A program made the position numbers and the translations under genes. Source: Methanoregula sp. (GTDB taxonomy: Archaea; Halobacteriota; Methanomicrobia; Methanomicrobiales; Methanospirillaceae). Taken from it: a DNA stretch of 64,000 bases. The stretch's first letter is position 1, and every line of letters begins with the position of its first letter. The notes beneath the pieces are model-generated. The model did no database searches and had not been told where the DNA came from. It worked only from the letters and a program-made list of their open reading frames with translations. Location of the stretch: the NCBI GenBank assembly GCA_039698055.1, contig JBDKTL010000016.1, forward strand, positions 1 to 64,000. The letters are read 5' to 3'. Positions 35,469 to 52,732 of the stretch are shown piece by piece.

Positions 35469-35499
35469 TCCCCGCTGGGGAAAACAGGGGGGAAAGACG

Positions 35500-36909: not shown

Positions 36910-37026
36910 CGGCACAGCCAGGCACCGATGAAAAGTGGTTGGTCAACAGATGGGGAACCGGATATTTTTGCGAAGTTTAGCTGGAATCGGGTAGAATTCA
37001 GAAAGTAAAAGACGGGAAGTGAAATT

Positions 37027-37764
37027 ATGGGACGCATTGAAGGAAGGGTAGCACTTATCAGTGGCGGTGCACGGGGCTTGGGCGCGACCAATGCCCGGGC
37101 CCTGGCGGCAGAAGGAGCGAAGGTCATAATCGGTGACACTCTCGAATCCGAAGGAAAACAGGTTGCAAAAGATCTGGGTCCCCGCGGCTGCTACGTTACG
37201 CTCGATGTTACTGAATCGTCTGACTGGATTGAAGCGGTAGAGATCGCAGAAAATACCTTCGGCCCGGTAAGCATTCTCGTGAATAGCGCAGGGATGGTGA
37301 GCCCTGCACCTTTTGATGAGTGCACAAACCAGCAATTCGGGGAAAGTATCGAATCCAACATTTACGGAACATTCTACGGAATGAAAGCCGTTATTCCCTC
37401 GATGAGAAAGGCTGGGGGTGGATCGATCATCAATATTTCATCCTTTTCCGGGCGGCGCGGGTATCCCATGGCACCGGGCTGCATTGCATCCAAATGGGGC
37501 ATCCGCGGCCTGACGAAATCGGCGGCCCTGGATCTCGCACGGTACCATATCCGGGTAAATTCGATTCACCTTGGACAAATCCTGACATCCGCGACAAGAG
37601 CAAACGATCTGGAGACCGGGCATGTGGCCATGAACCGGGCAGGCATGCCCGAAGAGCTTGCAAATGCCGTGCTCTTTCTTGCAGGCGATGAGTCCAGTTT
37701 CATCACCGGTGCCGAGATAGCAGTTGACGGCGGGGAAAGTGCGGGACTGGCAGACTGGGGATGA
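37027..37764 (+). CDS. SDR oxidoreductase (3-alpha/20-beta-HSD-like), catalytic Tyr apparently lost
   Basis: SGGARGLG, GSIINISS, GCIASKW at the YxxxK position, FITGAEIAVDGG. Confidence 0.85.
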   Translation: MGRIEGRVALISGGARGLGATNARALAAEGAKVIIGDTLESEGKQVAKDLGPRGCYVTLDVTESSDWIEAVEIAENTFGPVSILVNSAGMVSPAPFDECTNQQFGESIESNIYGTFYGMKAVIPSMRKAGGGSIINISSFSGRRGYPMAPGCIASKWGIRGLTKSAALDLARYHIRVNSIHLGQILTSATRANDLETGHVAMNRAGMPEELANAVLFLAGDESSFITGAEIAVDGGESAGLADWG

Positions 37765-37822
37765 GAAAGTCACTCAATTGTGAAATAAAATCATACTCGG
37801 AATAACACGCAAGGACACCTCG

Positions 37823-39361
37823 ATGACAGATGACATAACAGCGTCTATGGCGGCAGTCGAGCGATGGATTGGAAATCCGGTCTCGCGAGCCTGCCTCCGG
37901 TTTGTTGCGACGCATGATGAATGCGGAGACCGGTTGTCGAATGCAATCGATCTCTACCTGGGAAAGGAAAAGCATCTATGTTGGAAATGCAGGCTTGCCG
38001 GAAAGATTGTAGGGTATACCCTGAAGAAAAGCAGCCACCTGTTTGGCGTCAGCGACGCTGACATCAGGAAAGGACTGGCGGAACCGGTCTTCAAACGGGG
38101 GCTCATGAACGTGCTCAATGGCATTGCACAGTACGGGGTCACCCGGCCCCAGATCGTCAATGCACCGTTCCTGGTGGTCTGGGATTTTACCCACCGGTGC
38201 AACCTGCAGTGCAAACACTGCTACCAGGATGCCCAGCGGGCATTGCCGGATGAACTCACCACCGATGAGGCAAAAAAGCTTATCGACCAACTTGCAGACG
38301 TCGGGGTTGTCGTCATAGCATTCTCCGGCGGTGAACCCCTCATGAGAAAGGACTTCTTTGAGATCGCTTCCTACGCCCACGAGCACGATCTCTACGTCGC
38401 CCTTGCCAGCAACGGCACCATGATCACCCCGGAAGTGGCAAAAAGACTGCACGATACCGGCGTGGATTACGTGGAGATCTCCATTGACGGGAAAGATGCC
38501 GCACACCATGATGCCCTGCGGGGAATTGACGGTGCGTTCGAACGAAGCGTTGCCGGGATCCGGAACTGTGTAAAAAACGGGATCTATACCTGCATTGCCA
38601 CGACAGTAACGCAGGATAATTACGACCAGGTACCGGAAATCCACTGTCTCGCGAAAGATCTAGGGGTGACTCGCATGATCTGTTTCAATTTTAGCCCGAC
38701 CGGACGGGGTGTGGAGATGGCTGACAAGGACATAACTCCCTGCCAGCGGGATCATCTCCTCATGTTCATCTTGGTAAAAAACACACGCGGCCAGAAGCCT
38801 GAGGTGCTCTCCACCGCCCCGCAGTTAGCCCGGGTCGCTACCCAGAAAGTGGATTTGGGTATACCGGTGGGGCATTTCTATCTTGGTTCTGAATTGAGCG
38901 GCAGGGCCCGGATGCTTGCGGATTTTATCGGCGGATGCGGTGCCGGCAGGCTTTATTGCAGTGTCGAACCGCAGGGCGATATCCAGCCATGCGTCTTCAT
39001 GCCCATCAAAGTCGGGAATATTCGGAAGACACCGTTCCTTGAGATCTGGCATAATGCCGATGTGCTCAATAAGTTACGGGACCGCGATCTCCTGACCGGT
39101 AACTGCGGATCGTGCACGAACAAGTACATCTGCGGCGGCTGCCGTGCACGGGCGTGGGCGTATTTCCATGACCTGACAAAGCCGGATCCGGGATGCATCA
39201 GGAACACTGCAGTCTGGGATGAAATGATGGGACGGAGCGGGACTGTTACATCTCTGGTTAGTGACGGATTTTTCAATTCGGAGCAATTTGCAAATCAACT
39301 GCAGACGCAACAAAATCGAGCGAGGTATTCCCTAGGTAGGGATGATTACGATGGCCGGTAA
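37823..39361 (+). CDS. Radical SAM / SPASM domain protein
   Basis: CNLQCKHC, FSGGEPL, GCGAG..CSVEPQGDIQPC, CGSC..ICGGCRAR..DPGC. Confidence 0.92.
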   Translation: MTDDITASMAAVERWIGNPVSRACLRFVATHDECGDRLSNAIDLYLGKEKHLCWKCRLAGKIVGYTLKKSSHLFGVSDADIRKGLAEPVFKRGLMNVLNGIAQYGVTRPQIVNAPFLVVWDFTHRCNLQCKHCYQDAQRALPDELTTDEAKKLIDQLADVGVVVIAFSGGEPLMRKDFFEIASYAHEHDLYVALASNGTMITPEVAKRLHDTGVDYVEISIDGKDAAHHDALRGIDGAFERSVAGIRNCVKNGIYTCIATTVTQDNYDQVPEIHCLAKDLGVTRMICFNFSPTGRGVEMADKDITPCQRDHLLMFILVKNTRGQKPEVLSTAPQLARVATQKVDLGIPVGHFYLGSELSGRARMLADFIGGCGAGRLYCSVEPQGDIQPCVFMPIKVGNIRKTPFLEIWHNADVLNKLRDRDLLTGNCGSCTNKYICGGCRARAWAYFHDLTKPDPGCIRNTAVWDEMMGRSGTVTSLVSDGFFNSEQFANQLQTQQNRARYSLGRDDYDGR

Positions 39362-39528
39362 CATTGCCGGCGGGGTTGCTCAACCCGGCACGGACGTTCG
39401 GGCCGTACGTGGTGGACGGCCTGCTCGGCGGCGCAGATCTTTGGCAGTACTTCTCAATCTACGTGATCGGGCCGGTTTGCGGAGCGGTTGCTGCCGCGTT
39501 TTTCTACGACGGAATCACGATACAATGA
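39342..39528 (+). pseudogene. Frameshifted 3' fragment of a second aquaporin gene
   Basis: Aligns by eye to 36268-36453 (MITMAGNI..NPARTFGPY..LWQYF.IYVIGPV.GAV.AAFFYD). Confidence 0.8.
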
Positions 39529-39656
39529 TGGGGTGCGATTTTTTTTGTATTTCTTACAATAGTAACTTATTTTCACCCCGTTTTTCCCAAACGTTAAAAA
39601 ATCCGTCGTAATACACTGCTTGTGGTTCGTAAAAGAACCAAGGAGCTACCACAACT

Positions 39657-40160
39657 ATGGCAGATTTTGTACAGAGTGCAAACGTGAAGAGCGCGATCCG
39701 CAAGCTTGCGGAACCGATCGCTGATGTTACGGCGTTCAACGCGCTCGTCCAGTCGGTCATCACGTCAAACCCGTTTGCATGTGTCGCATATATGACCGCA
39801 GGGGAGAACAACCCGCCTGTCGAGAAGACCAAGGAAGGGTACACCGCGCGAATCGTCTATCAGGATACTGATGCAAAGACGGTCGGGACCGGTACTCACA
39901 AATTCGACACCCTCGCCGGGTATAACTCCGGGGTGACCGCGCTGCTTGCTGCTGCTGCGGTCAGCACGGCACACGGCGGTTCTGCGGCCCATGACACCGA
40001 CAAGGACACGTTCAGCGCGACCCTCAAGTGTCATGACCCGAACGGCGAACTTTACACGGTGAACTTCTCCCGCGACCAGCTCACCCTTACCTCCTATGAG
40101 GATGATGCAATCCGGACCAAGGTCGAGACCTGGGCGGACTCAGTCCCTGCTCTTGCCTGA
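39657..40160 (+). CDS. Hypothetical protein, 167 aa
   Basis: Clean ORF with AGGAG RBS; MADFVQSANVKSA...LKCHDPNGELY...ETWADSVPALA. Confidence 0.75.
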   Translation: MADFVQSANVKSAIRKLAEPIADVTAFNALVQSVITSNPFACVAYMTAGENNPPVEKTKEGYTARIVYQDTDAKTVGTGTHKFDTLAGYNSGVTALLAAAAVSTAHGGSAAHDTDKDTFSATLKCHDPNGELYTVNFSRDQLTLTSYEDDAIRTKVETWADSVPALA

Positions 40161-40244
40161 ACTTTTCTGACGAAACTACCCGGAGGGGAGGCGACCCCCC
40201 GGTCCCTCTCTTTTTGGTTCCCTCGTCGTTAACAGAGGACTCTA

Positions 40245-40409
40245 ATGGATATTGAAACGTTAGGGATTTTGCTGGGAGCCGTGCTTCCGATTTATCCTGT
40301 GTTGTTTACGATCCACCAGAAGATCGGGCAATATGATGAGATCGTCGAGGAGTTCAAGAGACTCCGGACGGAACACGAAAGTTACAAGGAGAAATACCAT
40401 GGAACCTGA
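40245..40409 (+). CDS. Small protein with N-terminal TM helix and charged tail, 54 aa
   Basis: MDIETLGILLGAVLPIYPVLFTIHQKIGQYDEIVEEF...; GAGGA RBS; overlaps the next start. Confidence 0.55.
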   Translation: MDIETLGILLGAVLPIYPVLFTIHQKIGQYDEIVEEFKRLRTEHESYKEKYHGT

Positions 40410-40881
40410 AAAAGCAGTGCAGCCGGTCGCGACGGTGACCGGCCTGTACCGGGGAAAGTTTGGCGGCCTTGAGCCGCTCACGCCGGATAAGCCGCTGACC
40501 CCGGAAGAAGTGCGTCGCAATCCCATTTTTTACGAGCTTGACCTTCACCCGGAACAGGGTGACGAGAACCTGATTATTGACTTGATTTACGACAACCTCG
40601 CACCCATCCGGTTGCAGGACCTGTACCGGGGAACCGATATTCCGCGGAACATCCGGTTCTGGCCGGACTGGTTCGACATTCCTCCCTACGAGGAGATGCA
40701 CGACATCGACGGCCGCCGGGTTTACCCGCGGGCCCCCGGGATCCACACGGTCCAGATCCGGACCGGTCGCCGGAAGTGGGCACAGATGGGCCGGGTCCGG
40801 GATTTCAGCCCGGAGAATGGCGGGTACACGAGCCCGGTCTTCGAGGTCCTGATCGCCAAAGGCGTGAATGCCAATGATTGA
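40399..40881 (+). CDS. Hypothetical protein
   Basis: MEPEKAVQP...RFWPDWFDIPPY...; AGGAG RBS. Confidence 0.65.
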   Translation: MEPEKAVQPVATVTGLYRGKFGGLEPLTPDKPLTPEEVRRNPIFYELDLHPEQGDENLIIDLIYDNLAPIRLQDLYRGTDIPRNIRFWPDWFDIPPYEEMHDIDGRRVYPRAPGIHTVQIRTGRRKWAQMGRVRDFSPENGGYTSPVFEVLIAKGVNAND

Positions 40882-41326
40882 CGGTTCGGCGGTTCACGCG
40901 TTCTGGTGCGGGATCCTGCACACGATCGGTGCGTTTGACCTGTCCGCGCTCACCGATGCGGAGAAGGTCGATATCGCCGGGCGGAGAACCTGGTTCTGGC
41001 TCGGCGAAGTGAGCGTGGCCGCGGTTCTGGCTGGGTTCATCGCGATCCCTGCGGGGATCTGGTTTGCCGGCCGGACCGAGATCTCCCTTGCATTCATCGC
41101 GGCTGCGGTCCTGTTCCTGCCGCTCTTTGTCTTCCTGCCGAAGCTGATCCAGCGCGGGATGAATGCGGACACCGATGCGGCGATTGACGCGTTCGGGAAG
41201 AATGAGCAGGTGAAGAAAATCTTCTGGGCGCTGTTCGTCGCGATGGCGGGACTGGTGCTGGCCCGGGTACTGGACCCGGCGACAGCTCAGCAGATTATCA
41301 CGCTCGTCACGTCGGCGGTGCCGTGA
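40868..41326 (+). CDS. Hypothetical membrane protein
   Basis: Three hydrophobic segments; overlaps the upstream gene. Confidence 0.6.
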   Translation: MPMIDGSAVHAFWCGILHTIGAFDLSALTDAEKVDIAGRRTWFWLGEVSVAAVLAGFIAIPAGIWFAGRTEISLAFIAAAVLFLPLFVFLPKLIQRGMNADTDAAIDAFGKNEQVKKIFWALFVAMAGLVLARVLDPATAQQIITLVTSAVP

Positions 41327-41411
41327 GGTTCTGGTTTTTCACCCGGAAAACGATACTGGTTTGGGTTGGGATGGTGATATCGTAGTGTCCCTTCGGGGAT
41401 AACTGGGTAGA

Positions 41412-41448
41412 CGGGTGGGGAGAGATTTCCTCGCCCGGATCTTTTTTG
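41412..41448 (+). terminator. GC hairpin followed by a T-run
   Basis: CGGGTGGGGA-GAGATT-TCCTCGCCCG then ATCTTTTTT, at the junction with the AT-rich operon. Confidence 0.45.
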
Positions 41449-41538
41449 GATTTTTCGGTTTCTCATTTGTGATTGGCATTACCATTTGAAAAGTTGTAAG
41501 TAGATATGAGATAGAATCACATTGAAGGAGGATTCTAT

Positions 41539-43479
41539 TTGGGAAAGCCCTTTCAATCTGAATTGAATAAAATCCCAGATACCATAGTTTGGGCGTTGAA
41601 TGAAAAAATAGAGGAAATTGTTTCGTTTATCGAGTCCTCTTATGATTCACCCCTCTACATAATTGGTTCAGGCGGCTCATTAACCGCTGCTCATTTGGTG
41701 AAATTACTCCACGAAGAGCTTGGAGCTTTTGCGCGAGTAATCACACCATATGAACTGCTGACAATGGACGCATCGTTGCGAAATTCAAGCATCCTGATGA
41801 TAACTGCAGGAGGTCGCAATCCCGATATTCTTTTTTCTTTTAAACATGCTGCAAAATCAGAGCCCAAGAATCTACTGGCCGTTTGTATGCGACCTAATAG
41901 CCCGCTTAAGGAAATAGAGAATACATATAATTTCGCGAAAGTTATTGATTTCCACATCCCTTCTGGAAAAGATGGTTTTTTGGCAACAAATTCGTTGGTT
42001 GCTTTTTGTATGCTCTTTTCTCGTGCTTATAGCGAAGTCTTGCAACAAAATACCACTTTCGATACTGGAATTACCCGTGACATTGAGATCTTCCCAGATA
42101 CCTCTTTTATGAATCAACTAAAAGTTTTATCGACGTTTAGCGTTCTTTATGGAAAGTGGAGTCTTCCAGCTGCTATCGACTTAGAATCAAAATTTACTGA
42201 AGCCGCTCTTGGAAATGTTCAGATTGCGGATTTTAGGAATTTTGCTCACGGACGACATTATTGGTTAGCGGGAAAAGGCGAACAATCTGGAATTGTCGCA
42301 ATTTATACTCTTGATGAAGAAAAAATTGTCAACAAAACATTGGACCTCATTCCAAAAGAAATTCCCGTCTTTAGAATATCTTCAGATTTTTTGGGCTCAA
42401 AGGGTGCGATTCAGTTATTGATTAAAAATTATTATTTTACAAATCTCGTTGCAGCGTATCAGGGAGTTGATCCGGGTTGTCCGACAGTTCCCATGTTCGG
42501 ACGTAAAATATATCGATTAAATGTCAATCCAATAATTCCCAAAGAAAAAATTCCTACGGGGATTAGTCATCAAGAATACGTCTCGATTAAAAGAAAAGTC
42601 GATTATATCACGTTGAAAGATCAGGAAATTCTCTCTATTTGGGTTAAAGCATACCGCGATTTTCTGAAAAAAATTAAATTATGTAAGTTTGGCTCAATCA
42701 TACTCGACTATGATGGTACACTTTCTGCAAAAACCGACAGAGAACTAAACCTTCCCACAGCGATATGCTCTGCTTTAACTCGATTATTGGAAAATGGTGT
42801 GATAATCGGTATTGCTACAGGGAGAGGCAAATCAGTTAGAGAGGAGATGCAAAAAGCAATTCCTCGTGAATTCTGGAATTCTATTGTCATAGGATATTAT
42901 AATGGTGCAGATATTAGTGATCTCTCCGATGAGGCACATCCAGATCTGGGAATTGAAACAGACCCTATTTTACTAAAATTAGAAGCCGTGTTAAATCAGG
43001 ATCCTCTCTTAACAAAATATTCCAAATGGGATCCTCGTCCCCATCAAATCTCAATATTTCTAAGAAAGGCTCATTTCAGGAATACCGTCAAATCCAAACT
43101 GGCTGATATCCTATCCCAGAATGACTTTGTAAGCTTAAAGTTTTTCGAATCTTCACATTCTTTCGATATAGTCACTGATGGTGTATCTAAGAAAAATCTA
43201 TTTTCTTTCGTTGAAAATAAAGCAGAGAGTAAAGGGAGACCTAAGGAAATTCTTTGTATCGGAGATAAAGGCAAGATCCCGGGAAATGACTTCGAGCTTT
43301 TACAGTCACCTCTTGCTCTGAGCGTCGATGAAGTATCTCATTGCTTCGAGAATTGTTGGAATTTAGCCCCTGAAGGATATCGGGGACCTCAGGCAACATT
43401 GGAGTATCTCGAATCAATAAAAACGCACGATAACTATATGAAATTTAATTTTCATATCGAGGGGAATATAAATGAATGA
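41539..43479 (+). CDS. SIS (sugar isomerase) domains fused to a Cof-type HAD phosphatase
   Basis: IIGSGGSLTAA, ITAGGRNPDI, ESKFTEAAL..NFAHGRH (GlmS-like SIS pair); ILDYDGTL, IATGR, GVSKK, IGDKG..GNDFELL (HAD motifs I-IV). Confidence 0.85.
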   Translation: MGKPFQSELNKIPDTIVWALNEKIEEIVSFIESSYDSPLYIIGSGGSLTAAHLVKLLHEELGAFARVITPYELLTMDASLRNSSILMITAGGRNPDILFSFKHAAKSEPKNLLAVCMRPNSPLKEIENTYNFAKVIDFHIPSGKDGFLATNSLVAFCMLFSRAYSEVLQQNTTFDTGITRDIEIFPDTSFMNQLKVLSTFSVLYGKWSLPAAIDLESKFTEAALGNVQIADFRNFAHGRHYWLAGKGEQSGIVAIYTLDEEKIVNKTLDLIPKEIPVFRISSDFLGSKGAIQLLIKNYYFTNLVAAYQGVDPGCPTVPMFGRKIYRLNVNPIIPKEKIPTGISHQEYVSIKRKVDYITLKDQEILSIWVKAYRDFLKKIKLCKFGSIILDYDGTLSAKTDRELNLPTAICSALTRLLENGVIIGIATGRGKSVREEMQKAIPREFWNSIVIGYYNGADISDLSDEAHPDLGIETDPILLKLEAVLNQDPLLTKYSKWDPRPHQISIFLRKAHFRNTVKSKLADILSQNDFVSLKFFESSHSFDIVTDGVSKKNLFSFVENKAESKGRPKEILCIGDKGKIPGNDFELLQSPLALSVDEVSHCFENCWNLAPEGYRGPQATLEYLESIKTHDNYMKFNFHIEGNINE

Positions 43480-44581
43480 GGATCTTGCCAAAAAAATTCT
43501 CAGAACATCTCTTGACTGGACGACAGATGAGATAAGAGATGAGATGTCAACTATTCAATTAATGGCCAGTTATAAGTATGATAATTATCAGCGTTTTTTT
43601 CCCGGTATGCGTTTTATTGAGAGCCTTTCTCAGTGGTTAAATCAATTCAAAACAATTGAGGAAAGGAAAGTAGCATATGAATTCATTAAAAAACGGTTGA
43701 TATTTTTCTCTGAAAGAGAAATCGAGCAACTCGTTTCAATGTCATATCCCGATCTGATAAAACCCATCCTTTATGAAAAAACGGCGTCAAATTTACATTG
43801 CTCTGAATATCAAATAAAGAAAATTTTTGAGAGTACCGAATTCAAAATTCTTCAAAGAAAATCTCTATTTTTAGGTTTAAGTGATGGGGCCCATATGGAT
43901 TTATTCAGGAGAATGAATCGTGAAGTGGGGTTGAAACACGATCAAATTAGTATTGGTTATGACATTAATGACACAAAACGTATTGAGCTTCTCGAAGAAC
44001 TCAAGAACGACCTAGAGAAAATTCCAGGATGTTCCACCTCGCAAGAAAATCTTCTTTTTAAAAATATTTTTTTAATTGATGATTTTTCAGCAAGTGGAAA
44101 AAGTTACTTTCACATTAAGAATGGCGAAATAAAGGGAAAAGTTGCTAAGGTAATGGATCAAATCAATAATCCAGATAGTGAGATCTCAAAAATAATCGAT
44201 AAATCTGATTTATTGGTTTGTGTTATTCTATATATAGCAACTGATACCAGCCTCAACTATCTGAGGCCGTTACTGAATGAAATTGCTGAAGCGAAAAAAT
44301 TTAAAATAAAAATTGTCTGCATTCAGAAACTAGATGATCAAACAAAAATTCAAAATGGCGAGGCTTTTTTGAAATTGATAGAAAACGATGCTTATTATGA
44401 TTCGGATGTGGAATCGAATGCAACTATGGTGGGCGGCACTAAAAGCGTAAAATTGGGCTTTGCCAATTGTGCTTTACCTGTGATATTGTATCACAATACT
44501 CCCAACGATTCTGTCGCAATTCTATGGCTGCATGAATATTTGAAGATAAAGGGGCTTTTTCCAAGAGTCACTCGCCATTAG
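43472..44581 (+). CDS. Phosphoribosyltransferase-like protein (conflict-system PRTase type)
   Basis: WLNQF, IFLIDDFSASGKS PRPP-binding loop, LGF..CALPVILYHNTPNDS, GLFPR. Confidence 0.75.
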   Translation: MNEDLAKKILRTSLDWTTDEIRDEMSTIQLMASYKYDNYQRFFPGMRFIESLSQWLNQFKTIEERKVAYEFIKKRLIFFSEREIEQLVSMSYPDLIKPILYEKTASNLHCSEYQIKKIFESTEFKILQRKSLFLGLSDGAHMDLFRRMNREVGLKHDQISIGYDINDTKRIELLEELKNDLEKIPGCSTSQENLLFKNIFLIDDFSASGKSYFHIKNGEIKGKVAKVMDQINNPDSEISKIIDKSDLLVCVILYIATDTSLNYLRPLLNEIAEAKKFKIKIVCIQKLDDQTKIQNGEAFLKLIENDAYYDSDVESNATMVGGTKSVKLGFANCALPVILYHNTPNDSVAILWLHEYLKIKGLFPRVTRH

Positions 44582-44589
44582 GATAGATC

Positions 44590-46467
44590 ATGATCGAACC
44601 ACGAAATCCGTTTATGATACAAACTTCGGAACAAATCGATTCCGAAAGAATATTTCTCCGATTATTCTCTCCTGGCGTACTGTCTTTATTAACAAATAAG
44701 GAACTTTGGGACAGAGTCAGTTTAATACTAAGCTCCCCCGGGGGGGGGAAAAGTTCCCTGATACGCCTTTTTACTCCGGGATCTCTTCTTGAACTCCATA
44801 ACCACCGAACTCATGAATTATTTAAAGAACTTTATCAAAGGATGAATCAATTGGGTGTTATTAATGACAATGGGCCTCAGATTTTAGGAATTTCGATATC
44901 CTGCGTCAGAAACTACGATTCTCTCGAAGACTTAAATCTCGAAGACGTTGATAAAAAGAGACTTTTTTTTGCATTACTAGATTCGAGGATTATCATATCG
45001 GCATTACGAGGATTAGTGGAGTTAAATCATTTGAAATTCGATGAAGATTTGAAAGCCATTACTTATATTTTACCTAACGATCTCCCATTGCCGACTGATT
45101 TTCCACAGAGGGGAAATGGACACGATTTATTTACCTGGGCTCAGAAGGCCGAAGAAAATGTGTATTCTATCATTGACAGTTTCGGCCCGATAAAGAAAGA
45201 ATCGTTGAAGGGTCATGATAGATTGATCAGTGCATTTGTTCTCAAACCAGATTATTTCAAATGCAATTCTAATTCTATTCCTCCACGAACTGTCATAATG
45301 TTGGACGATTGTCATAAATTGACCTCCACCCAACGAAAATCACTTTACGAAATTATTGACCAAAGACCTCCGATTGGTATCTGGATTGCGGAAAGATTTG
45401 ATCATTTTTCAATTGATCAATTAATCAATAAAGGGGCCTACCATGGTCGAGAAATTAATTTTATTGAATTGGAGGATTTTTGGAGCCAATCAAGCAAATT
45501 TGAAAAAATAGCGGAGAATATCGCTGATAAAAGAGCCCGATTTGCATCAACTGTAGATATTCAATCATTTGCCTCAAGATTACAATTTGAATGTGGCGAC
45601 TCTGAACAAAAACACCTTGAAGAAATTTGTAAAAAAATCGAAGAAAAAATTTTAAATAAAGGCAAAATTTCAGAAAAGTATATCGAGAGAATTGAATCTT
45701 TGCGAAATTCTCAGGAAAGACCCTTTGAAAGAGCAATATCTTGGAGATCGCTTGAGATCTTGATTGATCGGGATTTGAAGAAAGAACAAAAATTGATCTC
45801 TGATTATTCGGATGATCTCATCATCCCAATCGAAGAAGAATCTTTGGTTGATCGAGAAAATTCCGATGTAAGAAATGCCGCGGAATTATTCCTATCGAAG
45901 GACTATAAACTACCTTACTATTATGGCATGTCTCGTCTCGTCAAGGTGTCATCCTCAAATATATCCCAATTCTTGTGGATTAGTGGGAATATTTTTGAAG
46001 AAATTCTTGCTCAAAATTTAATGGATCCCTCAAAACTTATTGGCCTTAAACCTCAAGAAAAAATTATTAAAAAAATTATTGATGAGCGATGGAATCAACT
46101 TCCATACCGAGTTCAGTATGGTCGGGAGATCCAAAAATTCCTGACCTCGGTTGGAAAATTTTGTGCAAATGAGACCTATAAAGCGAATGCCTGGAATGCG
46201 CCAGGTGTAACAGGTATCGCAATACTAATGTCCGATGTAAAAAGACTGAATGAAGAAAAAAAGTACAAAAAACTGAATACAATCCTGAGAGAATGCATCG
46301 CAAATAAATTGTTAGAGGCGAGTCCTGGGAAAAAATGCAAAAATAAGGAATGGATGGTTCTATATTTCAACCGAATGTATTGCGTTTATTTTAATTTACC
46401 TCTGCAATACAGTGGAAAATTCAAGGAGAAAAAACTGGATGATGTTCTTAGCTGGCTAGAAAATTAA
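44590..46467 (+). CDS. P-loop ATPase (ORC/CDC6-STAND-like)
   Basis: NPF at the N-terminus, LILSSPGGGKSS Walker A, VIMLDDCH Walker B, YYG...SSNISQFL helical region. Confidence 0.75.
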   Translation: MIEPRNPFMIQTSEQIDSERIFLRLFSPGVLSLLTNKELWDRVSLILSSPGGGKSSLIRLFTPGSLLELHNHRTHELFKELYQRMNQLGVINDNGPQILGISISCVRNYDSLEDLNLEDVDKKRLFFALLDSRIIISALRGLVELNHLKFDEDLKAITYILPNDLPLPTDFPQRGNGHDLFTWAQKAEENVYSIIDSFGPIKKESLKGHDRLISAFVLKPDYFKCNSNSIPPRTVIMLDDCHKLTSTQRKSLYEIIDQRPPIGIWIAERFDHFSIDQLINKGAYHGREINFIELEDFWSQSSKFEKIAENIADKRARFASTVDIQSFASRLQFECGDSEQKHLEEICKKIEEKILNKGKISEKYIERIESLRNSQERPFERAISWRSLEILIDRDLKKEQKLISDYSDDLIIPIEEESLVDRENSDVRNAAELFLSKDYKLPYYYGMSRLVKVSSSNISQFLWISGNIFEEILAQNLMDPSKLIGLKPQEKIIKKIIDERWNQLPYRVQYGREIQKFLTSVGKFCANETYKANAWNAPGVTGIAILMSDVKRLNEEKKYKKLNTILRECIANKLLEASPGKKCKNKEWMVLYFNRMYCVYFNLPLQYSGKFKEKKLDDVLSWLEN

Positions 46468-46473
46468 ATTTTA

Positions 46474-47637
46474 ATGGATGGGGAAGAAATGGATGAGATT
46501 ATAAACGAAATGCGATGGGAAAATTATTTTTTACGTCGAGGAATGGATTTTAAAAAGTACTGGAAAGAATTCCTCGCCTCAAAACAAAGAGATGTCTGTT
46601 ATATTCTTGGTCTTGGATTTGATCCCCGTATGTGTTCCGCCATTGATTATATCATAAAGTGCGATGGGGAGGGTATTAGAGATTGTTATCTGATAAAGTT
46701 TAATGAAGGGGAAACATCGCAATCGAAAAATTATGAGCCTGAAATCGCAGAGAATGAAAAAAAATTAACTAAAATAATGTCAGATCGCGGCAGAATAATT
46801 CCTAAAGAAATTGAGATGATATCCTCAGATCGACGGAGAATTGGGGGGAGAGCAATAATTAAATGTTTAAATGATGTTGATTTCTCAAAATATTCTGATA
46901 TTATAGTCGATATTAGTGCCCTACCACGTCCATTATATTTTCCAATTATCAGAAAATTCCTGCACGAATTTGATGAAAAACGGAAAAATGGTCAGCGAAA
47001 ATTCAATCTTCACATAATCATTGTGGAAAATCCCAAGTTGGATTCATTGATTAAAGCATTGGGTGTAGAGGACAAAGCAGATTATATCGTTGGTTTCAGA
47101 GGACGAGTTGAATTGGAATCCACCGGAAATCTACCGACGGTCTGGATTCCGATTTTAGGTGAGGGGAAAGCAATACAATTAGACAGAATATATACACTGG
47201 TTAGACCCCAAGAAATATGTCCGGTTCTACCATTTCCAGCGCTAAATCCCCGAAGGGGAGATGATATCATCATTGAATATAGGGAAATGTTATTCGACAA
47301 CCTGCGAATAGATCCGGTTAATATCCTCTATGCCTCCGAACAAAATCCTTTTGAAGTCTATCGGAAAATCGTTCGGACGGTATCACAATATCATAGAACT
47401 TTAAATGTACTAGGTGGATGCAAAATCGTCGTATCAATATTGTCAAGTAAATTGCTTTCGATGGGAGCCCTTCTTGCAGTTTATGATATATCTGAAGATC
47501 TTCAGCCTAAAATCCCGATCGCGATCGCTCATGTGGAAAGTCAGGGATATGAGCTAGATCCATTCGATAAAGACGAAATTATGAAACATGAAGAGCTATA
47601 TTCTATGTGGCTAGCCGGCGAATGCTATGACGACTGA
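46474..47637 (+). CDS. Hypothetical protein, possibly tandem Rossmann/CARF-like domains
   Basis: YILGLGFDPR, IIVDISALPR, WIPILGEG, CPVLPFP, LSSKLLSMG. Confidence 0.6.
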   Translation: MDGEEMDEIINEMRWENYFLRRGMDFKKYWKEFLASKQRDVCYILGLGFDPRMCSAIDYIIKCDGEGIRDCYLIKFNEGETSQSKNYEPEIAENEKKLTKIMSDRGRIIPKEIEMISSDRRRIGGRAIIKCLNDVDFSKYSDIIVDISALPRPLYFPIIRKFLHEFDEKRKNGQRKFNLHIIIVENPKLDSLIKALGVEDKADYIVGFRGRVELESTGNLPTVWIPILGEGKAIQLDRIYTLVRPQEICPVLPFPALNPRRGDDIIIEYREMLFDNLRIDPVNILYASEQNPFEVYRKIVRTVSQYHRTLNVLGGCKIVVSILSSKLLSMGALLAVYDISEDLQPKIPIAIAHVESQGYELDPFDKDEIMKHEELYSMWLAGECYDD

Positions 47638-48718
47638 CGAATTAAATTTTTTTGAAAATAAGGACCCAAAACCAATAGCTACCGGAACCGGACTCATAGC
47701 ATTGGATGTAATAATTAATGGCCATAATAGAAATGAGCCTTATTACATGACCGGAGGATCATGTGGGAATGTTTTAATAATTCTCTCGTATTTTGGGTGG
47801 CACACATATCCTCTTGGCCGGTTTAAAGAGGATAATTTCTCAAAATTTATTATCGGCGATTTGAAAAAGTGGGGCGTAGATACCTCATATCTTAAATTTG
47901 ACGATAAGGCAAGTACACCTGTTATTATCGAAAAAGTCAGACAAAAGGAAAATGGCGAATCAACCCATGCCTTCAGCTTCTTTTGTCCTGAATGTAATTC
48001 GTTTTTACCGAGATATCGACCCGTCACAATAAAACAAGTCGAGTCTATTCTGGATAATTTACCTACATCCAGTGTTTGCTATATTGATCGAGTATCCGGT
48101 GGGACCCTTGAATATGCAAAATCTTGTAAAAATAAAGGAGCTTTGATCTTCTTTGAACCCACAAAAATTGATGATAATAGCAATTTTCGTAAAATTCTTG
48201 AAATTTGTGATGTTTTAAAATATTCAAATGAAATTTGCATTACCGATCCAAATATTGTGCGCGATAGCTACGTTCCGTTGAAAATCGAAACGCTAGGTTC
48301 ATCCGGATTATTGTTTAGTTTTAACAACGGCCTCTCTAGAAAAAGAAACGAAAAATGGCAAAAAATGAGGGCGTTTCCTATCAAAAACTTCGTTGATGCA
48401 GCGGGTGCAGGTGATTGGTGTAGCGCAGGACTAATTCATTTTTTAAATATGAAAAAAATAACGGACATCAATCAATTAGATGAAAAAACGTTAAAAACCG
48501 CATTAAATTTTGGACAAGCTCTTGCGGCGGCAAATTGCAGATTTTTTGGAGCACGAGGTAGTATGTATGCACTCTCTAAAGATAACTTTCACAAATTCGT
48601 TAATGACATTCTTAAAAAGAAGGATATTTCGACCTCTAATATGCCCCCTTTGCAATTAAAACGACCGAAAAAAAACAAAGGTTGTTGTCCAATTTGCAAT
48701 GAAAAGAACCGTGTGTAA
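47627..48718 (+). CDS. PfkB/ribokinase-family kinase with CxxC insert
   Basis: GTGLIALDVI, GGSCGNV, VDAAGAGDWCSAG anion hole; FFCPEC. Confidence 0.88.
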   Translation: MTTDELNFFENKDPKPIATGTGLIALDVIINGHNRNEPYYMTGGSCGNVLIILSYFGWHTYPLGRFKEDNFSKFIIGDLKKWGVDTSYLKFDDKASTPVIIEKVRQKENGESTHAFSFFCPECNSFLPRYRPVTIKQVESILDNLPTSSVCYIDRVSGGTLEYAKSCKNKGALIFFEPTKIDDNSNFRKILEICDVLKYSNEICITDPNIVRDSYVPLKIETLGSSGLLFSFNNGLSRKRNEKWQKMRAFPIKNFVDAAGAGDWCSAGLIHFLNMKKITDINQLDEKTLKTALNFGQALAAANCRFFGARGSMYALSKDNFHKFVNDILKKKDISTSNMPPLQLKRPKKNKGCCPICNEKNRV

Positions 48719-49066
48719 TAATTTTGAATCTCTTTTTCTATTCCTATTATTTCGGAATGCATCGGCACTACGGGCGAATGATAAGACCGTGACGGACTTA
48801 GTTAGTGATCACAATTGGATTATGGTGGCTTCGAAGCAGATTATCGTCAGCCAATTTTCATGGGGTCCGGGGTCCCATGTTTCCTGCAGAGCGTGATCAT
48901 GCGGCTGGTCCCGGTCCATCCCTCTCTTCCCAAATCTAATATTCTCCCAGACACTATACTGAATCAGAAATTGAGCTGCATCCGCCCCGGAACTTCCATT
49001 TTGGGAAAGAAACCGGATTTCGGCTCGGTACAAAAACGTGGAAAATCCCTTACATAAGGTTCGGAC

Positions 49067-50530
49067 ATGACAGAACAGATGAATATCCGGGAACTCGTTG
49101 ATACTCTGCGACGTAAGGACACCGAAGAGGAATGGTTTGAGTTCAAAGTCGATTACGCCGAACCTCAAAAGATCGGTGAATATCTGTCGGCGTTGAGCAA
49201 TTCAGCGGCATTGTCCCACGAGGAGTACGGCTATCTTGTCTACGGTCTGGATGATTCGCATCACAGGATCGTCGGCACCGGGTTTCAGCCAAAAAAGGCA
49301 AAAGGAAAAGGGAACGAGGATCTCGAGCCATGGCTGACCCGCCTTCTGGATCCCCGTGTTGATTGTGCGATTTGGGAAGAGGAGATAAATGGGGCCCGGG
49401 TTGTAGTTTTCCGGGTTGCGGCAGCACGGGAACGCCCCGTCAGGTTTTCCGGCGTTGCGCATATCCGTGTCGGTTCCAACAACCATAAACTGGCAGATTA
49501 TCCGGAAAAAGAAAGAAAATTGTGGAGTATTATTCATTCGGTACCGTTTGAGGAGGGTATAGCCCTTACCGGACAGTCAAGCGACGATATCTTACAAAAG
49601 ATCGATTATCCGAAATTCTTCGAGCTCATGAAAATCCCCCTCCCTGATAACCGGGCGGGGATACTCAGCAGGCTTGAGGAAGAGAAAATTATCCAGAAAA
49701 CAAAGGATCATTACTATTCTATAACCAATTTAGGTGCAATTCTCTTCTCAAAAAACTTCGAGGATTTCCCACCACTCACCCGCAAATCCCTGAGAATTGT
49801 TGTGTACGATGGGGACGGCCGCCTGAATGCAAAGAAAGAGCATATCGTCAAGAGCGGTTATGCAACATCGTTCGAATCGACTATCGACTGGATATTTGAT
49901 CAGGTCCCTTCCAATGAGGTAATCAAGGATGCATTGCGCGTCGAGCGAAAGATGTACCCGAAAGTTACGATCCGTGAAGTTGTTGCAAATGCGTTGATCC
50001 ACCAGGATTTTTCCATAACCGGTGCCGGGCCGATGGTTGAGGTGTTTTCGAGAAGGATGGAAATTTCGAATCCCGGCAAACCGTTAATCAGTCCGGACCG
50101 GTTTATTGATCATCCTCCCCGATCGCGGAACGAGAAACTGGCGTCGGTGATGCGCCGCGTAAATATTTGTGAAGAGCGGGGTAGCGGGATTGATCGGGCG
50201 ATCGATTGCATAGAGGTATTTCAGTTACCCGCGCCGGAATTTCTTGACGACAATGATTTCATGCGCATTACGTTGTTCGGACACCAGAATATCGGCGAAA
50301 TGGGAAAAGCAGATAAGATTAGGGCTTGCTACCAGCACTGCTGCCTGAGATGGGTGTGCCGGGACTATATGACAAACGCAACTCTCCGGAAGCGGCTGGG
50401 GATTGACGACCTGAATTATCCCATGGCTTCACGGATTATCAAGGACACCATGGACCAGGGCTTGATCCGGTTGTATGATCCGGAAAACAAATCGAACAGG
50501 ACCCGGAAGTACATCCCGTTCTGGTCATAA
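49067..50530 (+). CDS. Schlafen/AlbA_2 domain with RecG-C-like (HATPase_c_4) domain and wHTH
   Basis: EEEWFEFK, SALSNS, GYLVYG, IRVGS; REVVANALIHQD, ISNPG, RSRNEKLA, CEERGSG. Confidence 0.85.
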   Translation: MTEQMNIRELVDTLRRKDTEEEWFEFKVDYAEPQKIGEYLSALSNSAALSHEEYGYLVYGLDDSHHRIVGTGFQPKKAKGKGNEDLEPWLTRLLDPRVDCAIWEEEINGARVVVFRVAAARERPVRFSGVAHIRVGSNNHKLADYPEKERKLWSIIHSVPFEEGIALTGQSSDDILQKIDYPKFFELMKIPLPDNRAGILSRLEEEKIIQKTKDHYYSITNLGAILFSKNFEDFPPLTRKSLRIVVYDGDGRLNAKKEHIVKSGYATSFESTIDWIFDQVPSNEVIKDALRVERKMYPKVTIREVVANALIHQDFSITGAGPMVEVFSRRMEISNPGKPLISPDRFIDHPPRSRNEKLASVMRRVNICEERGSGIDRAIDCIEVFQLPAPEFLDDNDFMRITLFGHQNIGEMGKADKIRACYQHCCLRWVCRDYMTNATLRKRLGIDDLNYPMASRIIKDTMDQGLIRLYDPENKSNRTRKYIPFWS

Positions 50531-50559
50531 ATTTGGGCGTAGCAAAATATCATCGGCCA

Positions 50560-50663
50560 ATGTAACTGGCATGTGCATATGCACAAAGAAAAAGGGCAGA
50601 TTGAGGGGGTTACCCCGTTTGCTCGTCAATTTGATGTAACAGGTTATGTAACGGGCATGTAAC
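50560..50663 (+). repeat. ATGTAAC heptamer repeats (x4; three in tandem)
   Basis: Copies at 50560, 50634, 50646 and 50657. Confidence 0.6.
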
Positions 50664-50740
50664 TGAAAGGGATAATCTCCCGGACCGCCCACCCTGGAGT
50701 CCCGCCCACCAACCGAGGGCGGGAACCATTGTGTCCGGTT

Positions 50741-51312
50741 GACACGCAGACGCTCGGTCATGTTCACTCGTCCTCGCTGATGCTCCGGCTCGCTTCACAT
50801 CACCTCGCTGTTTCTTTCGGTTGATTGCTGGGATGAGGACGCCCCTGGCTTGTCGCGCTGCTCCGGCGCCAGCGGCTGCCCCGGCCCGCTCCTCACACCA
50901 TGCTCCGCATCGTGTTCGTCGCTGTTGATGCGAAAACGCAGACGCTCAGTGACTCGCTCGCACGACGCACAGGGGGCTCGGACTCGCCGCTGATGCGGCT
51001 CCTTACCTTCGCGCCCCTGTCGCGGTGCTCGCTCGGGCCGCTGGGCCCCGGACCTTTCTCCCGCTTCGCTCCTCCCTCCCTTGAAAAGGAGGGCAGTCAT
51101 TGCGATAGGAACGGAGGAGGTTTCAGGGCCGGGCGGGAGGACAAAGCGACGGTTACCGGACGCATCAGCGGACGGTCGCTCGCTTTGTCGGGCGGGTCCA
51201 ACCGAAGCGATCGCGTACCAACAGGAAACTAAAGAGGGCGGGTCATGGCCACACGGCGCGGTTACGGGACGCATCAGCGGCCTGTCGCGCTGTGTGCCTG
51301 GGCGGGCCTTGC
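50741..51312. repeat. Structured GC-rich non-coding element, copy 1 (inverted homolog of 53207-53792)
   Basis: 50881-50929 matches the reverse complement of 53605-53653 at 48/49; colinear similarity and conserved hairpins along the whole length. Confidence 0.85.
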
Positions 51313-51443
51313 GAAAAATAAAAATTTAATTCTGCGCAATTGCCTTATTTCGCAAATCGGACAACGCACCGCTTTTACTTTCACCCTGCGCACGCCGATG
51401 TACTATATGCTCTAACGTCGATAGATGTATGGTGAAAAACACC

Positions 51444-51824
51444 ATGAGGCCAACAACAAAAACAGATGTGAAGTTCGAGCACATAGGGGCAGCCCGCCTC
51501 TATCAGAGCTCGGTCCGTATCGATGTCAAGACAATGCAGGCAGTCATTCCCACCAGTGAAGTACACAAACTTGAACAGCACTGGCCTGCGGCAGTCTATG
51601 ACATATCCGATGTTATGAAGAACGCGGACGCGGCCCCGGTCGGGAAGGCATGGATCACCCGGTCCGGTAAAGCCGTGATGATCTCCATCAACGATGTGCA
51701 GTATGTCTCCCCTCTCGCACAGGTAAAGGGGATGCTCAAGGGCGAGCGGAAATATGCAAACGTCTCAACCATGTGCACCGTGCAGCCCATGACCACAAAC
51801 CAGCCGGCAGGGGCGACAGCATGA
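51444..51824 (+). CDS. Hypothetical protein upstream of ardC
   Basis: GGTGA RBS before MRPTTKTD; VGKAWITRSGKAV; overlaps the ardC start (ATGA). Confidence 0.65.
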   Translation: MRPTTKTDVKFEHIGAARLYQSSVRIDVKTMQAVIPTSEVHKLEQHWPAAVYDISDVMKNADAAPVGKAWITRSGKAVMISINDVQYVSPLAQVKGMLKGERKYANVSTMCTVQPMTTNQPAGATA

Positions 51825-52732
51825 AGGCCGCTGACGTAAAGGCGCAAATAAACGAGAGGATCATAAAATCTCTCGCGGAAGGAAAGATCCCCTGGCTGAA
51901 GCCGTGGACCGAGAACGGGCCGCGCAACCTCTTCAGCGGCAGGGCATATACCGGGCTGAACCGGCTGATCCTCGGGCTCAGTCCCTATCCTCTCCCCTTT
52001 TGGGCAACCTACCGCCAGTATCTCGCAGCAGGGCTACAGGTCCAGTTTGGTGAGCACGGCACCGGGATTATCTACGCAGGCCGGACCGTGAAGACCGACA
52101 CGGAAAGGGACGAGAACGGCGAGGAGACCGAGCGCAGGAAACAGATCCGTTTCCTGAAAGCCTTCGTTGTTTTCAACATCGCCCAAACCGATTACAAGGA
52201 GAAGGGCTACAAGATCCCGGACCAGAAAGAGAACCCGCACCTTCTCGGATGCGATACAATCATTCAGGACTACACGGGCCGGGAGTCGATAAGGATCGCA
52301 GGAGGAAGCCGAGCCGCATACTCCCCGCAGATGGATATTATCACCTGCCCGGAGATCGGCCAGTTCAGGACTTCCGAGCACTATTATGCGACGATGTTTC
52401 ATGAGTGCGTTCACTCCACCGGGCCCCGGCTCGACCGGTTCAAGCGGACCGATCCGGTCTGCTTCGGGTCCGACACCTACGGGCGCGAGGAACTGGTAGC
52501 CGAGATCGGGAGTGCATACCTGGCCGCACTCACCGGGATTGATTCAACGGCGATCATTCAGAATCAGGCCGCCTACCTCCAGAACTGGGCGACGGCGATT
52601 AAGGCCGATGCGGATCTTGTGATGTATGCCGCAGGCAGGGCAGAGAAGGCAGCGGACTTTATGATCGGGGCTTCGGCCCCGGACCCTGCCAGCGCTGCAG
52701 GAACAGAAATGGCGGGAGGGGTGGCAGCATGA
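51821..52732 (+). CDS. ardC: ArdC-family antirestriction / ssDNA-binding protein
   Basis: IPWLKPW, PRNLFSGRAYTGLN, WATYRQ, VFNIAQ, HECVHSTG, YGREELVAEIG, AAYLQNW. Confidence 0.9.
   Translation: MKAADVKAQINERIIKSLAEGKIPWLKPWTENGPRNLFSGRAYTGLNRLILGLSPYPLPFWATYRQYLAAGLQVQFGEHGTGIIYAGRTVKTDTERDENGEETERRKQIRFLKAFVVFNIAQTDYKEKGYKIPDQKENPHLLGCDTIIQDYTGRESIRIAGGSRAAYSPQMDIITCPEIGQFRTSEHYYATMFHECVHSTGPRLDRFKRTDPVCFGSDTYGREELVAEIGSAYLAALTGIDSTAIIQNQAAYLQNWATAIKADADLVMYAAGRAEKAADFMIGASAPDPASAAGTEMAGGVAA

Follow-up and report, generated by a model that had tools for sequence, protein, structure and literature searches.

A mobile five-gene cassette encoding a CARF6 protein, an ORC-CDC6-like ATPase and a predicted phosphoribosyltransferase effector: a candidate conflict system in archaea and bacteria

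Five tightly packed genes in an AT-rich block

We examined a 64,000-nucleotide stretch of the genome of the archaeon Methanoregula sp. (assembly GCA_039698055.1, contig JBDKTL010000016.1, positions 1 to 64,000 of the forward strand), which we call the window. At positions 41539 to 48718 it contains five genes, hereafter the cassette, which code for a SIS-HAD fusion protein, a phosphoribosyltransferase (PRTase) of the PRTase-CE family, an ORC-CDC6-like ATPase, a tandem CARF protein, and a PfkB-family kinase. A previous reading of this DNA made from its letters alone (the sequence-only reading) had described these genes as a co-oriented, closely packed operon, more AT-rich than its neighbors, and had proposed that they form a nucleotide-based defense system. 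The open reading frames (ORFs) lie exactly where that reading placed them, all on the plus strand:

41307..41538, plus strand: 5' leader of the operon and left edge of the AT-rich block (drop in G+C content; the match to a contig from metagenome run X4, described below, begins at 41307)
41539..43479, plus strand: gene 1, SIS-HAD fusion, 646 amino acids (aa), TTG start (ORF, profiles)
43472..44581, plus strand: gene 2, PRTase-CE, 369 aa (ORF, profiles)
44590..46467, plus strand: gene 3, ORC-CDC6-like AAA+ ATPase, 625 aa (ORF, profiles)
46474..47637, plus strand: gene 4, CARF6 tandem CARF protein, 387 aa (ORF, profiles, fold)
47627..48718, plus strand: gene 5, PfkB kinase, 363 aa (ORF, profiles)
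48719..48749, plus strand: right edge of the transferred block (matches to X4 contigs end at 48731-48749; G+C content climbs from about 49 kb)

Genes 1 and 2 overlap by 8 nt, gaps of 8 nt and 6 nt separate genes 2 and 3 and genes 3 and 4, and genes 4 and 5 overlap by 11 nt. The TTG start of gene 1 is credible because GGAGG lies 7 nt upstream of it and because the N-terminus that it gives (MGKP...) is conserved among orthologs. The difference in base composition was borne out: the block has a G+C content of 36.7%, as compared to 53.8% in the left flank (21991-41400), 54.9% in the right flank (48719-54000), and 51.4% in the host genome as a whole (2.26 Mb, 93% complete). Among the direct and inverted repeats of 41100-49200 there is none that brackets the cassette, and an Rfam scan of 39000-51000 gave no match upstream of it, and one chance-level match overall. 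Seven related loci were also free of Rfam leaders and riboswitches, except for pieces of group II introns in one of them: upstream of a cyanobacterial cassette (positions 1819-2517 of locus L019), group II intron domain V-VI is matched three times in tandem (RF00029, 51-59 bits).

A metatranscriptome library, from a study that may also have yielded the DNA of the window, contains five contigs with 100% identity to stretches of the cassette. They map to the genes for the ATPase, CARF6 and PfkB, and two of them span the ATPase/CARF6 and CARF6/PfkB junctions. Since contigs from an RNA library give neither strand nor level, and may stem from contaminating DNA, they are only a weak hint that the cassette genes are co-transcribed; the parts of the cassette that they leave uncovered are no sign of silence.

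The cassette is conserved as a unit and is horizontally mobile

We scanned one genome per species from 185,579 species and found 260 loci, 80 of which were kept for analysis. The carriers belong to many bacterial phyla and to the archaeal groups Methanosarcina, Methanotrichaceae, Bathyarchaeota, Thaumarchaeota and Thermoplasmata; overall the cassette is known from methanogens, Thaumarchaeota, cyanobacteria, myxobacteria, Bacteroidota and alphaproteobacterial plasmids. Searches by tblastn with the window proteins recovered CARF6 from all 80 loci, the ATPase from 79, PfkB from 78, the PRTase from 74 and SIS-HAD from 69, at 28-50% amino acid sequence identity. All five genes are present in 68 of the 80 loci, and in the remaining 12 a contig end cuts the cassette. 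Gene order is constant in every locus but L030, so the operon proposed from the window alone does travel as one unit. Three copies (L021, L045 and L069) look degraded or interrupted. No sixth gene recurs in the flanks: when we clustered the 730 flanking ORFs, the largest family was present in only 6 of the 80 loci. Four loci (L001, L008, L028 and L030) have an extra gene beside the PRTase gene, coding for a dCTP-deaminase-like protein that ends in a hydrophobic stretch resembling a transmembrane helix. In L001, for example, it lies at 6253-6915 and codes for a dCTP-deaminase/dUTPase-like protein of 220 aa (PF22769, 4.3e-10). Some versions of the cassette may therefore have a further activity directed at nucleotides.

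Within the family of the host the cassette is rare, being present in 1 of 100 other genomes. That genome belongs to the same genus as the host, and its copy (locus L130, at G114:C4) is only 37-44% identical to the one in the window and has a TGA codon inside the CARF6 frame; the match stops at residue 359. Because of the low identity and the TGA codon we regard it as a separate acquisition, and it may be decaying.

More distant relatives of the cassette, with CARF6 identities of 27-37%, are carried by 19 plasmid records, of which 9 are conjugative. Plasmids of Sulfitobacter and Agrobacterium carry the same five genes, annotated in order as HAD, hypothetical, hypothetical, hypothetical and PfkB; in the NCBI annotation of the plasmids the three core proteins are thus all hypothetical. 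On one conjugative plasmid the cassette is inserted between the coupling-protein gene and the virB operon. We found no relative in 50,697 phage records, and none in a pattern scan of IMG/VR viral contigs. A further copy of the cassette is on a contig of 7789 nt from another, unrelated metagenome (run X4), which is about 92% identical to the window over 41307-48731 and has unrelated sequence on both sides, so that it marks the edges of the transferred block. It differs from the window by a 12-nt insertion after 44362 and by a diverged 71-nt patch at 43980-44052. Two further DNA runs, X3 and X5, of which a small share was covered, gave fragments of the cassette only. The block is horizontally mobile between bacteria, archaea and plasmids.

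To describe the settings of the cassette we took, to its left and right, the nearest ORF with a length of 180 aa or more, and scanned 101 of the 124 proteins so selected (23 were left out by size). Ten of the 101 are restriction-modification or BREX proteins (HsdR/M/S, MmeI-type, BrxL, Mrr), and a further 12 come from mobile elements (integrases, serine recombinases, TnsD, Mu transposase, relaxase, phage Gp157, IrrE-type peptidase). About 15 are other conflict-type proteins, for example SNF2/ResIII/UvrD helicases, HEPN_Swt1, CHAT-TPR, PIN-TPR-GreABC, Fic, NADAR, PD-(D/E)XK, Nmad2 and YgjP-like proteins. Forty have no family and the remainder are housekeeping or generic; none of the 101 is a Cas protein. 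This tally is suggestive and is not a statistic, because it has no background control and because some flanks are shared by related loci (L005/L006 and L007/L009/L010). Together with the plasmids, it places the cassette in mobile or defense-type contexts and not in sugar-catabolism loci.

The PRTase and ATPase belong to families built for conflict systems

The motifs for catalysis or ligand binding are retained in each of the five proteins. Each motif named in the sequence-only reading (GSGGS of SIS, DYDGT, TGR, GD..GND, IDDFSASG, GGGKS, LDD and GAGD) is present in the translations, and the positions concerned are at least 95% conserved among 65-75 orthologs.

The product of gene 2 matches the Pfam family PRTase-CE (PF24390) with an E-value of 4.1e-22 (79.7 bits; cut-off 27) and the PADLOC profile PRTase_III-A with an E-value of 1.7e-15. 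It has a helical N-terminal region and an intact loop for phosphoribosyl pyrophosphate (PRPP), and the top 21 structural matches of its AlphaFold2 model (pLDDT 85.4) are all type I PRTases (Z 6.9-8.8). The best of these is the uracil phosphoribosyltransferase 1vst_A (Z 8.8, 155 residues aligned, root-mean-square deviation [rmsd] 3.9). The acidic PRPP loop consists of D203, D204, F205, S208 and G209, and its pattern D203 D204 x x x S208 G209 is invariant in orthologs. By its predicted fold and its PRPP loop, gene 2 codes for a type I phosphoribosyltransferase.

The product of gene 3 matches the ORC-CDC6-like family (PF24389) over residues 6-608, with an E-value of 1.3e-19 (70.8 bits; cut-off 27), and the nearest clusters in the ESM Atlas consist of 90-99% PF24389 members. 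It has Walker A residues G51, G53 and K54, Walker B residues D239 and D240, and an invariant N-terminal R5-N6-P7-F8. The idea that a PRTase and an ORC/CDC6-like protein occur here as a pair of conflict-system parts is upheld, both proteins being matched by families that were built for conflict systems. PDB sequence searches gave nothing usable for the PRTase, the ATPase or CARF6.

Gene 4 codes for a tandem CARF protein

The fourth protein, which the sequence-only reading had called Rossmann-like, proved to be something more specific. It has no match to any Pfam family, and matches the PADLOC profile PDLC01910 ('CARF6') from end to end with an E-value of 1.8e-121. We aligned its AlphaFold2 model (pLDDT 88.6, pTM 0.90) structurally to 48,161 PDB chains with VIA-align. 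The best match is the type III CRISPR nuclease Can1 (6sce_A; Z 14.6, 234 residues aligned, rmsd 3.1), and ranks 2-14 and 16-19 are occupied by CARF proteins, namely Csm6, Csx1, Card1, Cam1, Can2, Cdn1, Csa3, Crn1-type, Cad1 and Cami1 proteins. Between these, at rank 15, is VC1899, which has no annotation, and from rank 20 onward SAVED domains appear (Z 7.2-8.1). The chain contains two CARF domains, at approximately residues 40-190 and 200-385; since these span all 387 residues, there is no effector domain. A motif that we take to be a CARF signature, D146-x-S148-x3-R152, is conserved. On this predicted structure, gene 4 codes for an effector-less tandem CARF protein of the CARF6 family. Another indication was set aside: Foldseek put tandem USP-like transporter domains first (TM-score 0.22-0.26, rmsd about 18), and we preferred the full structural alignment. 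In the PADLOC scan of the cassette proteins, weak matches to DpdJ and Cas8b (E about 0.01) were taken as chance.

We found 1077 relatives of CARF6 at E <= 1e-3 in a protein collection clustered at 90%, none of which has a Pfam domain. Two protein clusters are CARF6-PfkB fusions, of 768 and 740 aa (one of them has 12 member sequences on 15 contigs), and one protein of 1025 aa is an ATPase-CARF6 fusion. These rare fusions link CARF6 physically to both of its neighbors in the cassette. A structure prediction for a complex of CARF6 with PfkB (score 0.00, mark 0.32) weighs neither for nor against their binding.

Genes 1 and 5 code for predicted sugar-phosphate enzymes

The N-terminal part of gene 1 (approximately residues 1-340) is a double SIS module resembling phosphosugar isomerases and deaminases. 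Residues 21-128 match the NagB-II profile (0.0017), and a PDB profile search with gene 1 found the SIS protein 2aml (2.9e-05) and the NagB-II/GlmS-like structures 8eol and 3hba. The C-terminal part (approximately residues 385-600) is a predicted HAD phosphatase domain of class IIB (Cof/SPP-type), matched by Pfam Hydrolase_3 (4.2e-08) and also S6PP, and by the NCBIfam profile HAD-SF-IIB (TIGR01484; 3.6e-11, 43.5 bits, cut-off 41.8). The PDB profile search also hit the sugar phosphatases 4qjb, PfHAD1 and BT4131. One source names relatives of gene 1 'HAD hydrolase/fructoselysine-6-P-deglycase FrlB-like'. Conserved or invariant positions include G43-S47 and H237-H240 in the SIS part and D390, D392, T427-R429, K551, D576, N583 and D584 in the HAD part, where all four HAD motifs are kept (DxD, D390 and D392; T/S, T427; K, K551; GDxxxND, D576, N583 and D584).

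Gene 5 matches the Pfam PfkB family (PF00294) with an E-value of 8.6e-17 and the NCBIfam fructokinase profile with an E-value of 1.7e-15, well under the cut-off of that profile; its PDB profile matches are the sugar kinase PH1459 (2.1e-12), ketohexokinases and fructokinases. Its catalytic motif is DAAGAGD, and residues D27, G43, G44, N48, E177, D257, G260, G262 and D263 are conserved. Judged by these similarities it is a PfkB-family sugar kinase of the fructokinase/ketohexokinase-like kind. It also has cysteine pairs (CPxC ... CPxC) that suggest a zinc ribbon.

Genes 2-4 belong to a wider class of ATPase/CARF6/effector loci

We searched for the ATPase family PF24389 in 401 genomes of the host phylum and in 301 Bacteroidota genomes (19 and 12, respectively, above the cut-off), and read 24 loci other than the five-gene cassette, 13 archaeal and 11 bacterial. 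In 20 of the 24 a CARF6-family gene is directly downstream of the ATPase gene or fused to it (11 of the 13 archaeal loci by PADLOC CARF6 profiles, and 9 of the 11 bacterial loci by our own hidden Markov models). The slot upstream of the ATPase, or fused to it, is variable: it holds PRTase-CE in five loci, HD-CE in five, Pkinase in four, SIR2 in two, TIR in one, and a calcineurin-like phosphoesterase (Metallophos) in one, with the TIR, SIR2 and protein-kinase domains being fused to the ATPase. Such variability is the hallmark of an effector position. A DNA methylase gene is adjacent in 17 of the 24 loci.

The cassette has the same core arrangement, with a PF24389 ATPase, a CARF6 gene 6 nt downstream of it and a PRTase-CE gene 8 nt upstream, and its CARF6 is homologous to the CARF6 proteins of the other ORC-like loci (hhalign probability 97.8%, E-value 7.4e-13, 271 columns). 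Because of the shared order and this homology, genes 2-4 of the window are the PRTase-CE version of the effector/ATPase/CARF6 triad. The sequence-only reading had referred to PRTase/ATPase pairs predicted as conflict systems; such a pair is there, but the core is a triad, whose CARF6 member had been overlooked. In the five-gene form, SIS-HAD is located where the methylase usually sits, and PfkB follows CARF6. There is no DNA methylase among the five cassette proteins, nor did the flanks of the 80 loci show a recurring methylase family.

Several loci of the wider class have features of their own. In two archaeal loci that have a methylase as well as PRTase-CE, the ATPase and CARF6 (L116 and L118), CARF6 is followed by a gene for a DNA glycosylase of the HhH-GPD/EndoIII type (6981-7622 and 9034-9852, respectively), in the position that PfkB has in the cassette. 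Two Bacteroidota loci have an ORC-CDC6-like ATPase with a long N-terminus. One adjoins a Druantia DruA-family gene (L139, 4003-7665) and the other is near a Glycos_transf_3 gene (anthranilate-PRTase/nucleoside-phosphorylase fold) and a C5 methylase gene (L140, 4240-10140); our hidden Markov models found no CARF6 in either.

The cassette matches no named system and contains no known cyclase

No named system in PADLOC matches the cassette, and the ATPase lacks a model in PADLOC v2 (0 matches). The parts have been catalogued already, as the Pfam families PRTase-CE, ORC-CDC6-like and HD-CE and as a PADLOC series of CARF6 profiles that includes one specific for the CARF6 of the cassette, so the class is known computationally. 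A search of the main texts of papers in one literature library gave no description of the cassette or of ORC-like/CARF6 systems, and no experiment on the cassette. Given the existing profiles for its parts, the five-gene layout is not wholly new. Neighborhoods with ORC-CDC6-like, CARF6 and CE proteins have reportedly been predicted computationally by the Aravind and Koonin groups. The predictions probably go back to a classification of CARF proteins (Makarova et al. 2020 NAR) and to Burroughs et al. 2015 NAR, in which the five-gene neighborhood may already have been depicted.

As regards INDEPENDENCE from known cyclases, a Pfam scan found no cyclase among the five cassette proteins. The Cas10 palm2 profile had no match in the host genome (93% complete), and the SMODS profile of CD-NTases had none in the five proteins; the one SMODS match of the host genome lies on a different contig and is below threshold (21 bits; cut-off 26.5). 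Cas10 palm matches above the cut-off are present in 12 carrier genomes out of 50 and lacking in the other 38, figures that come from a profile that also matches an E. coli control, and so is not fully specific, and from genomes whose completeness is not established. With no known cyclase in cassette or host, the ligand of the CARF protein is left unexplained by known synthases. The cassette appears from its gene content and flanks to be independent of CRISPR and is not tied to cas genes.

Compared to the other ORC-CDC6-like/CARF6/CE loci, the cassette has the same effector, ATPase and CARF6 order, a homologous CARF6 and the same scattered, island-like occurrence, but it lacks the methylase, has SIS-HAD and PfkB in addition, and has a PRTase that is 40-70 aa longer; moreover the five-gene form itself is strictly conserved across many phyla. 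It resembles the type III CRISPR CARF proteins (Can1, Csm6, Csx1, Card1, Crn1) in fold and in the CARF-type motif, with two CARFs per chain as in Can1, whereas its CARF6 has no nuclease or effector domain, there are no cas genes nearby, and the host has no Cas10 match. The cyclic-oligonucleotide-based system CBASS differs in having a CD-NTase cyclase, which the cassette lacks. Two metabolic gene sets, FrlB/FrlD (fructosamine kinase and deglycase) and GmhA/HldA/GmhB (the ADP-heptose pathway), also combine SIS, PfkB and HAD proteins, and the double SIS module is FrlB/NagB-II/GlmS-like; unlike them the cassette has no transporter, regulator or nucleotidyltransferase, and its context is mobile and defense-like. 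We considered an ADP-heptose-like pathway and rejected it, the SIS module being double and not a single GmhA, the HAD domain being of class IIB and not GmhB, and a nucleotidyltransferase domain being absent.

The effector has parallels in two other defense systems. The PRTase-CE families include the effectors of type III-A retrons (PMC13712802), and activation of the PRTase of Retron-Eco11 is reported to lower PRPP by about half and to be associated with abortive infection (PMC12746101). The cassette PRTase belongs to the same Pfam and PADLOC family, but the five proteins include no reverse transcriptase domain, there is no Rfam match to an msr/msd RNA, and control would be by the ATPase and CARF. 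ShosTA likewise has a PRTase-fold protein, ShosT, described as a toxic PRTase, a metabolic toxin that disrupts purine metabolism (PMC11961720); the cassette has no DprA-like domain, no ShosA partner and no PADLOC match to ShosT or ShosA.

Possible function of the cassette

We interpret the cassette as a self-contained mobile conflict unit, most likely for anti-phage or anti-plasmid defense, with a PRTase that attacks PRPP or nucleotide pools, and we give this interpretation a probability of about 50%. In the mechanism that we envisage, the ATPase would be the sensor or switch that responds to an invader cue. CARF6 would bind a nucleotide-type ligand and gate the output, possibly via the PfkB kinase, its occasional fusion partner. 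PRTase-CE would be the effector and, by analogy with the PRTase of Retron-Eco11, would drain PRPP or upset nucleotide pools, so that replication of the invader is stopped, possibly at the cost of the cell. SIS-HAD and PfkB would make up a phosphosugar branch that feeds the PRTase reaction, extends it or makes it irreversible; this branch is the weakest step of the model.

Several points weigh against the interpretation as defense. The defense role is predicted from the gene content, and three of the five proteins look like ordinary sugar-phosphate enzymes that would be superfluous to PRPP depletion. The cassette contains no known enzyme that makes a CARF ligand, which leaves the role of the CARF protein unexplained. 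There is no DNA methylase, so discrimination of self from non-self may differ from that in the related loci or be absent. The Pfam scores of the PRTase and ATPase are modest, at 80 and 71 bits as compared to 200-380 bits in the methylase-linked loci, which marks the five-gene branch as divergent. About one quarter of the flanking genes are housekeeping genes in a survey that had no control, the Cas10 profile is imperfectly specific, and the RNA-library contigs may come from DNA carry-over.

The main rival is a biosynthetic role, in which PfkB phosphorylates, SIS isomerizes and HAD dephosphorylates a sugar phosphate that the PRTase then joins to a base or nucleotide. The output in that case would be a non-canonical nucleotide or sugar-nucleotide and not the loss of PRPP, and the product would serve as a second messenger for CARF6 or as an antiviral antimetabolite. 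We consider this role unlikely. It would account for the retention of the catalytic residues of all four enzymes in the 65-75 orthologs, for the close coupling of the genes (the overlaps of 8 nt between SIS-HAD and PRTase and of 11 nt between CARF6 and PfkB, and the CARF6-PfkB fusions), and, with no known cyclase in cassette or host, for the presence of a CARF protein, whose ligand would be made in cis. There is a possible precedent in sets of PRTase and HAD proteins, which have been proposed to be makers of nucleoside-derived signals in Ter systems (PMC7824862). On the other hand, related CARF6/ATPase loci lack the sugar enzymes, so that the CARF6 ligand does not generally depend on them, and the cassette has no nucleotidyltransferase or pyrophosphokinase, unless the PRTase fold serves as one; the product is not nameable from sequence. 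One specific form of this idea, which we think has a similarly small chance of being right, is a cyclase-free CARF pathway: CARF6 would gate PfkB, which together with SIS-HAD and the PRTase would build a sugar-modified nucleotide that acts as messenger or antimetabolite, and this module would have replaced the methylase module of the relatives.

We regard counter-defense and plain catabolism as less likely than biosynthesis. As counter-defense cargo of conjugative elements, the cassette would protect the element by means of a CARF6 that, in the manner of ring nucleases, soaks up or cleaves the cyclic-oligonucleotide alarm signals of the host and of enzymes that recycle the products. Its carriage on conjugative plasmids (once between the coupling-protein gene and the virB operon) fits this idea, as do the position of the window cassette within an integrase-bearing element, at a distance of 3 kb to ardC, and the presence of the CARF-only ring nucleases Sso2081 and Sso1393 among the structural matches of gene 4. 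What makes it improbable is that the same core occurs elsewhere with TIR, SIR2, HD or kinase domains plus a DNA methylase, the pattern of host-type suicide and restriction systems; that the cassette is absent from the phage records and the viral contig scan; and that 38 of the 50 carrier genomes have no Cas10 palm match over the cut-off. A mobile operon for the catabolism or salvage of a rare sugar, an amino-sugar (Amadori-type) compound or a nucleoside, with ATPase and CARF-like regulators, would suit the typically catabolic nature of a FrlB/NagB-II-like double SIS, a fructokinase-like PfkB and a Cof-type phosphatase, and the housekeeping genes in some flanks, but is very improbable given that the cassette has no transporter or DNA-binding regulator (Pfam scan) and no conserved neighbor, has a very patchy distribution (1 of 100 other host-family genomes), has flanks rich in restriction, BREX and mobile-element genes, and shares its core with TIR, SIR2 and HD effector loci.

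If the mobile conflict unit that we propose is indeed protective, the cassette would be a cross-domain defense system, and the metabolite or the depletion mechanism behind it might be new. What is understood of CARF and SAVED sensors concerns almost exclusively their response to the products of Cas10 or CD-NTases. Here, across hundreds of species, a CARF family is paired with an ORC/Cdc6-like ATPase; the cassette contains no cyclase, which makes it a compact unit in which to ask what a CARF protein senses. The sugar-phosphate enzymes that stand in place of the methylase of the relatives hint at an immune chemistry of phosphosugars or PRPP, and the cyclase-free pathway, if it proved true, would yield immune nucleotides in a way that has no connection with Cas10, CD-NTases, TIR or viperin. 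If instead the function is counter-defense or metabolism, the result would correct the way that the CARF6 and PRTase-CE profiles are read in defense-annotation pipelines.

Genomic neighborhood of the cassette in the window

In the window the cassette lies between small family-less ORFs and a gene with SLFN_AlbA_2 and HATPase_c_4 domains, with ArdC 3 kb beyond, so the Schlafen-AlbA and ardC neighbors noted previously are both present. The Schlafen protein (49067-50530) has a weak PADLOC match (4.3e-07) to an Aga SIR2-type profile. ArdC (51773-52732) consists of ArdcN and a zincin peptidase, and the ORFs between the two genes have no family.

The sequence-only reading had placed the cassette inside an integrative element. 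Upstream of the cassette, at a distance of 18 kb, a tRNA-Gln gene (anticodon TTG, 21857-21929) is followed after 62 nt by a tyrosine integrase gene (21991-23211) with a C-terminal zinc-ribbon match, a pairing typical of the left end of integrated elements. Downstream we found no att repeat, neither of the 3' half of the tRNA gene nor of the next 60 nt (searched as 18-30-mers, with about 10% mismatch allowed). The borders of the larger element are thus undefined: the abutting tRNA and integrase genes support the claim of an integrative element, but the repeat expected of one was not found.

Other genes lie between the integrase and the cassette. At 23984-29137 an ORF of 1034 aa with no Pfam family overlaps a gene for a small Dam-like N6-adenine methylase (27085-27630), which is followed by an unknown ORF of 444 aa in a patch with 35.5% G+C; these genes may be a further defense- or restriction-type module of the same element. 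They are followed at 33032-39361, inside the putative element, by a GC-rich (54-62%) run of genes for DUF169, DUF2193 (1e-266), short-chain dehydrogenase and radical SAM/SPASM proteins, and then, at 39342-41326, by four small family-less ORFs.

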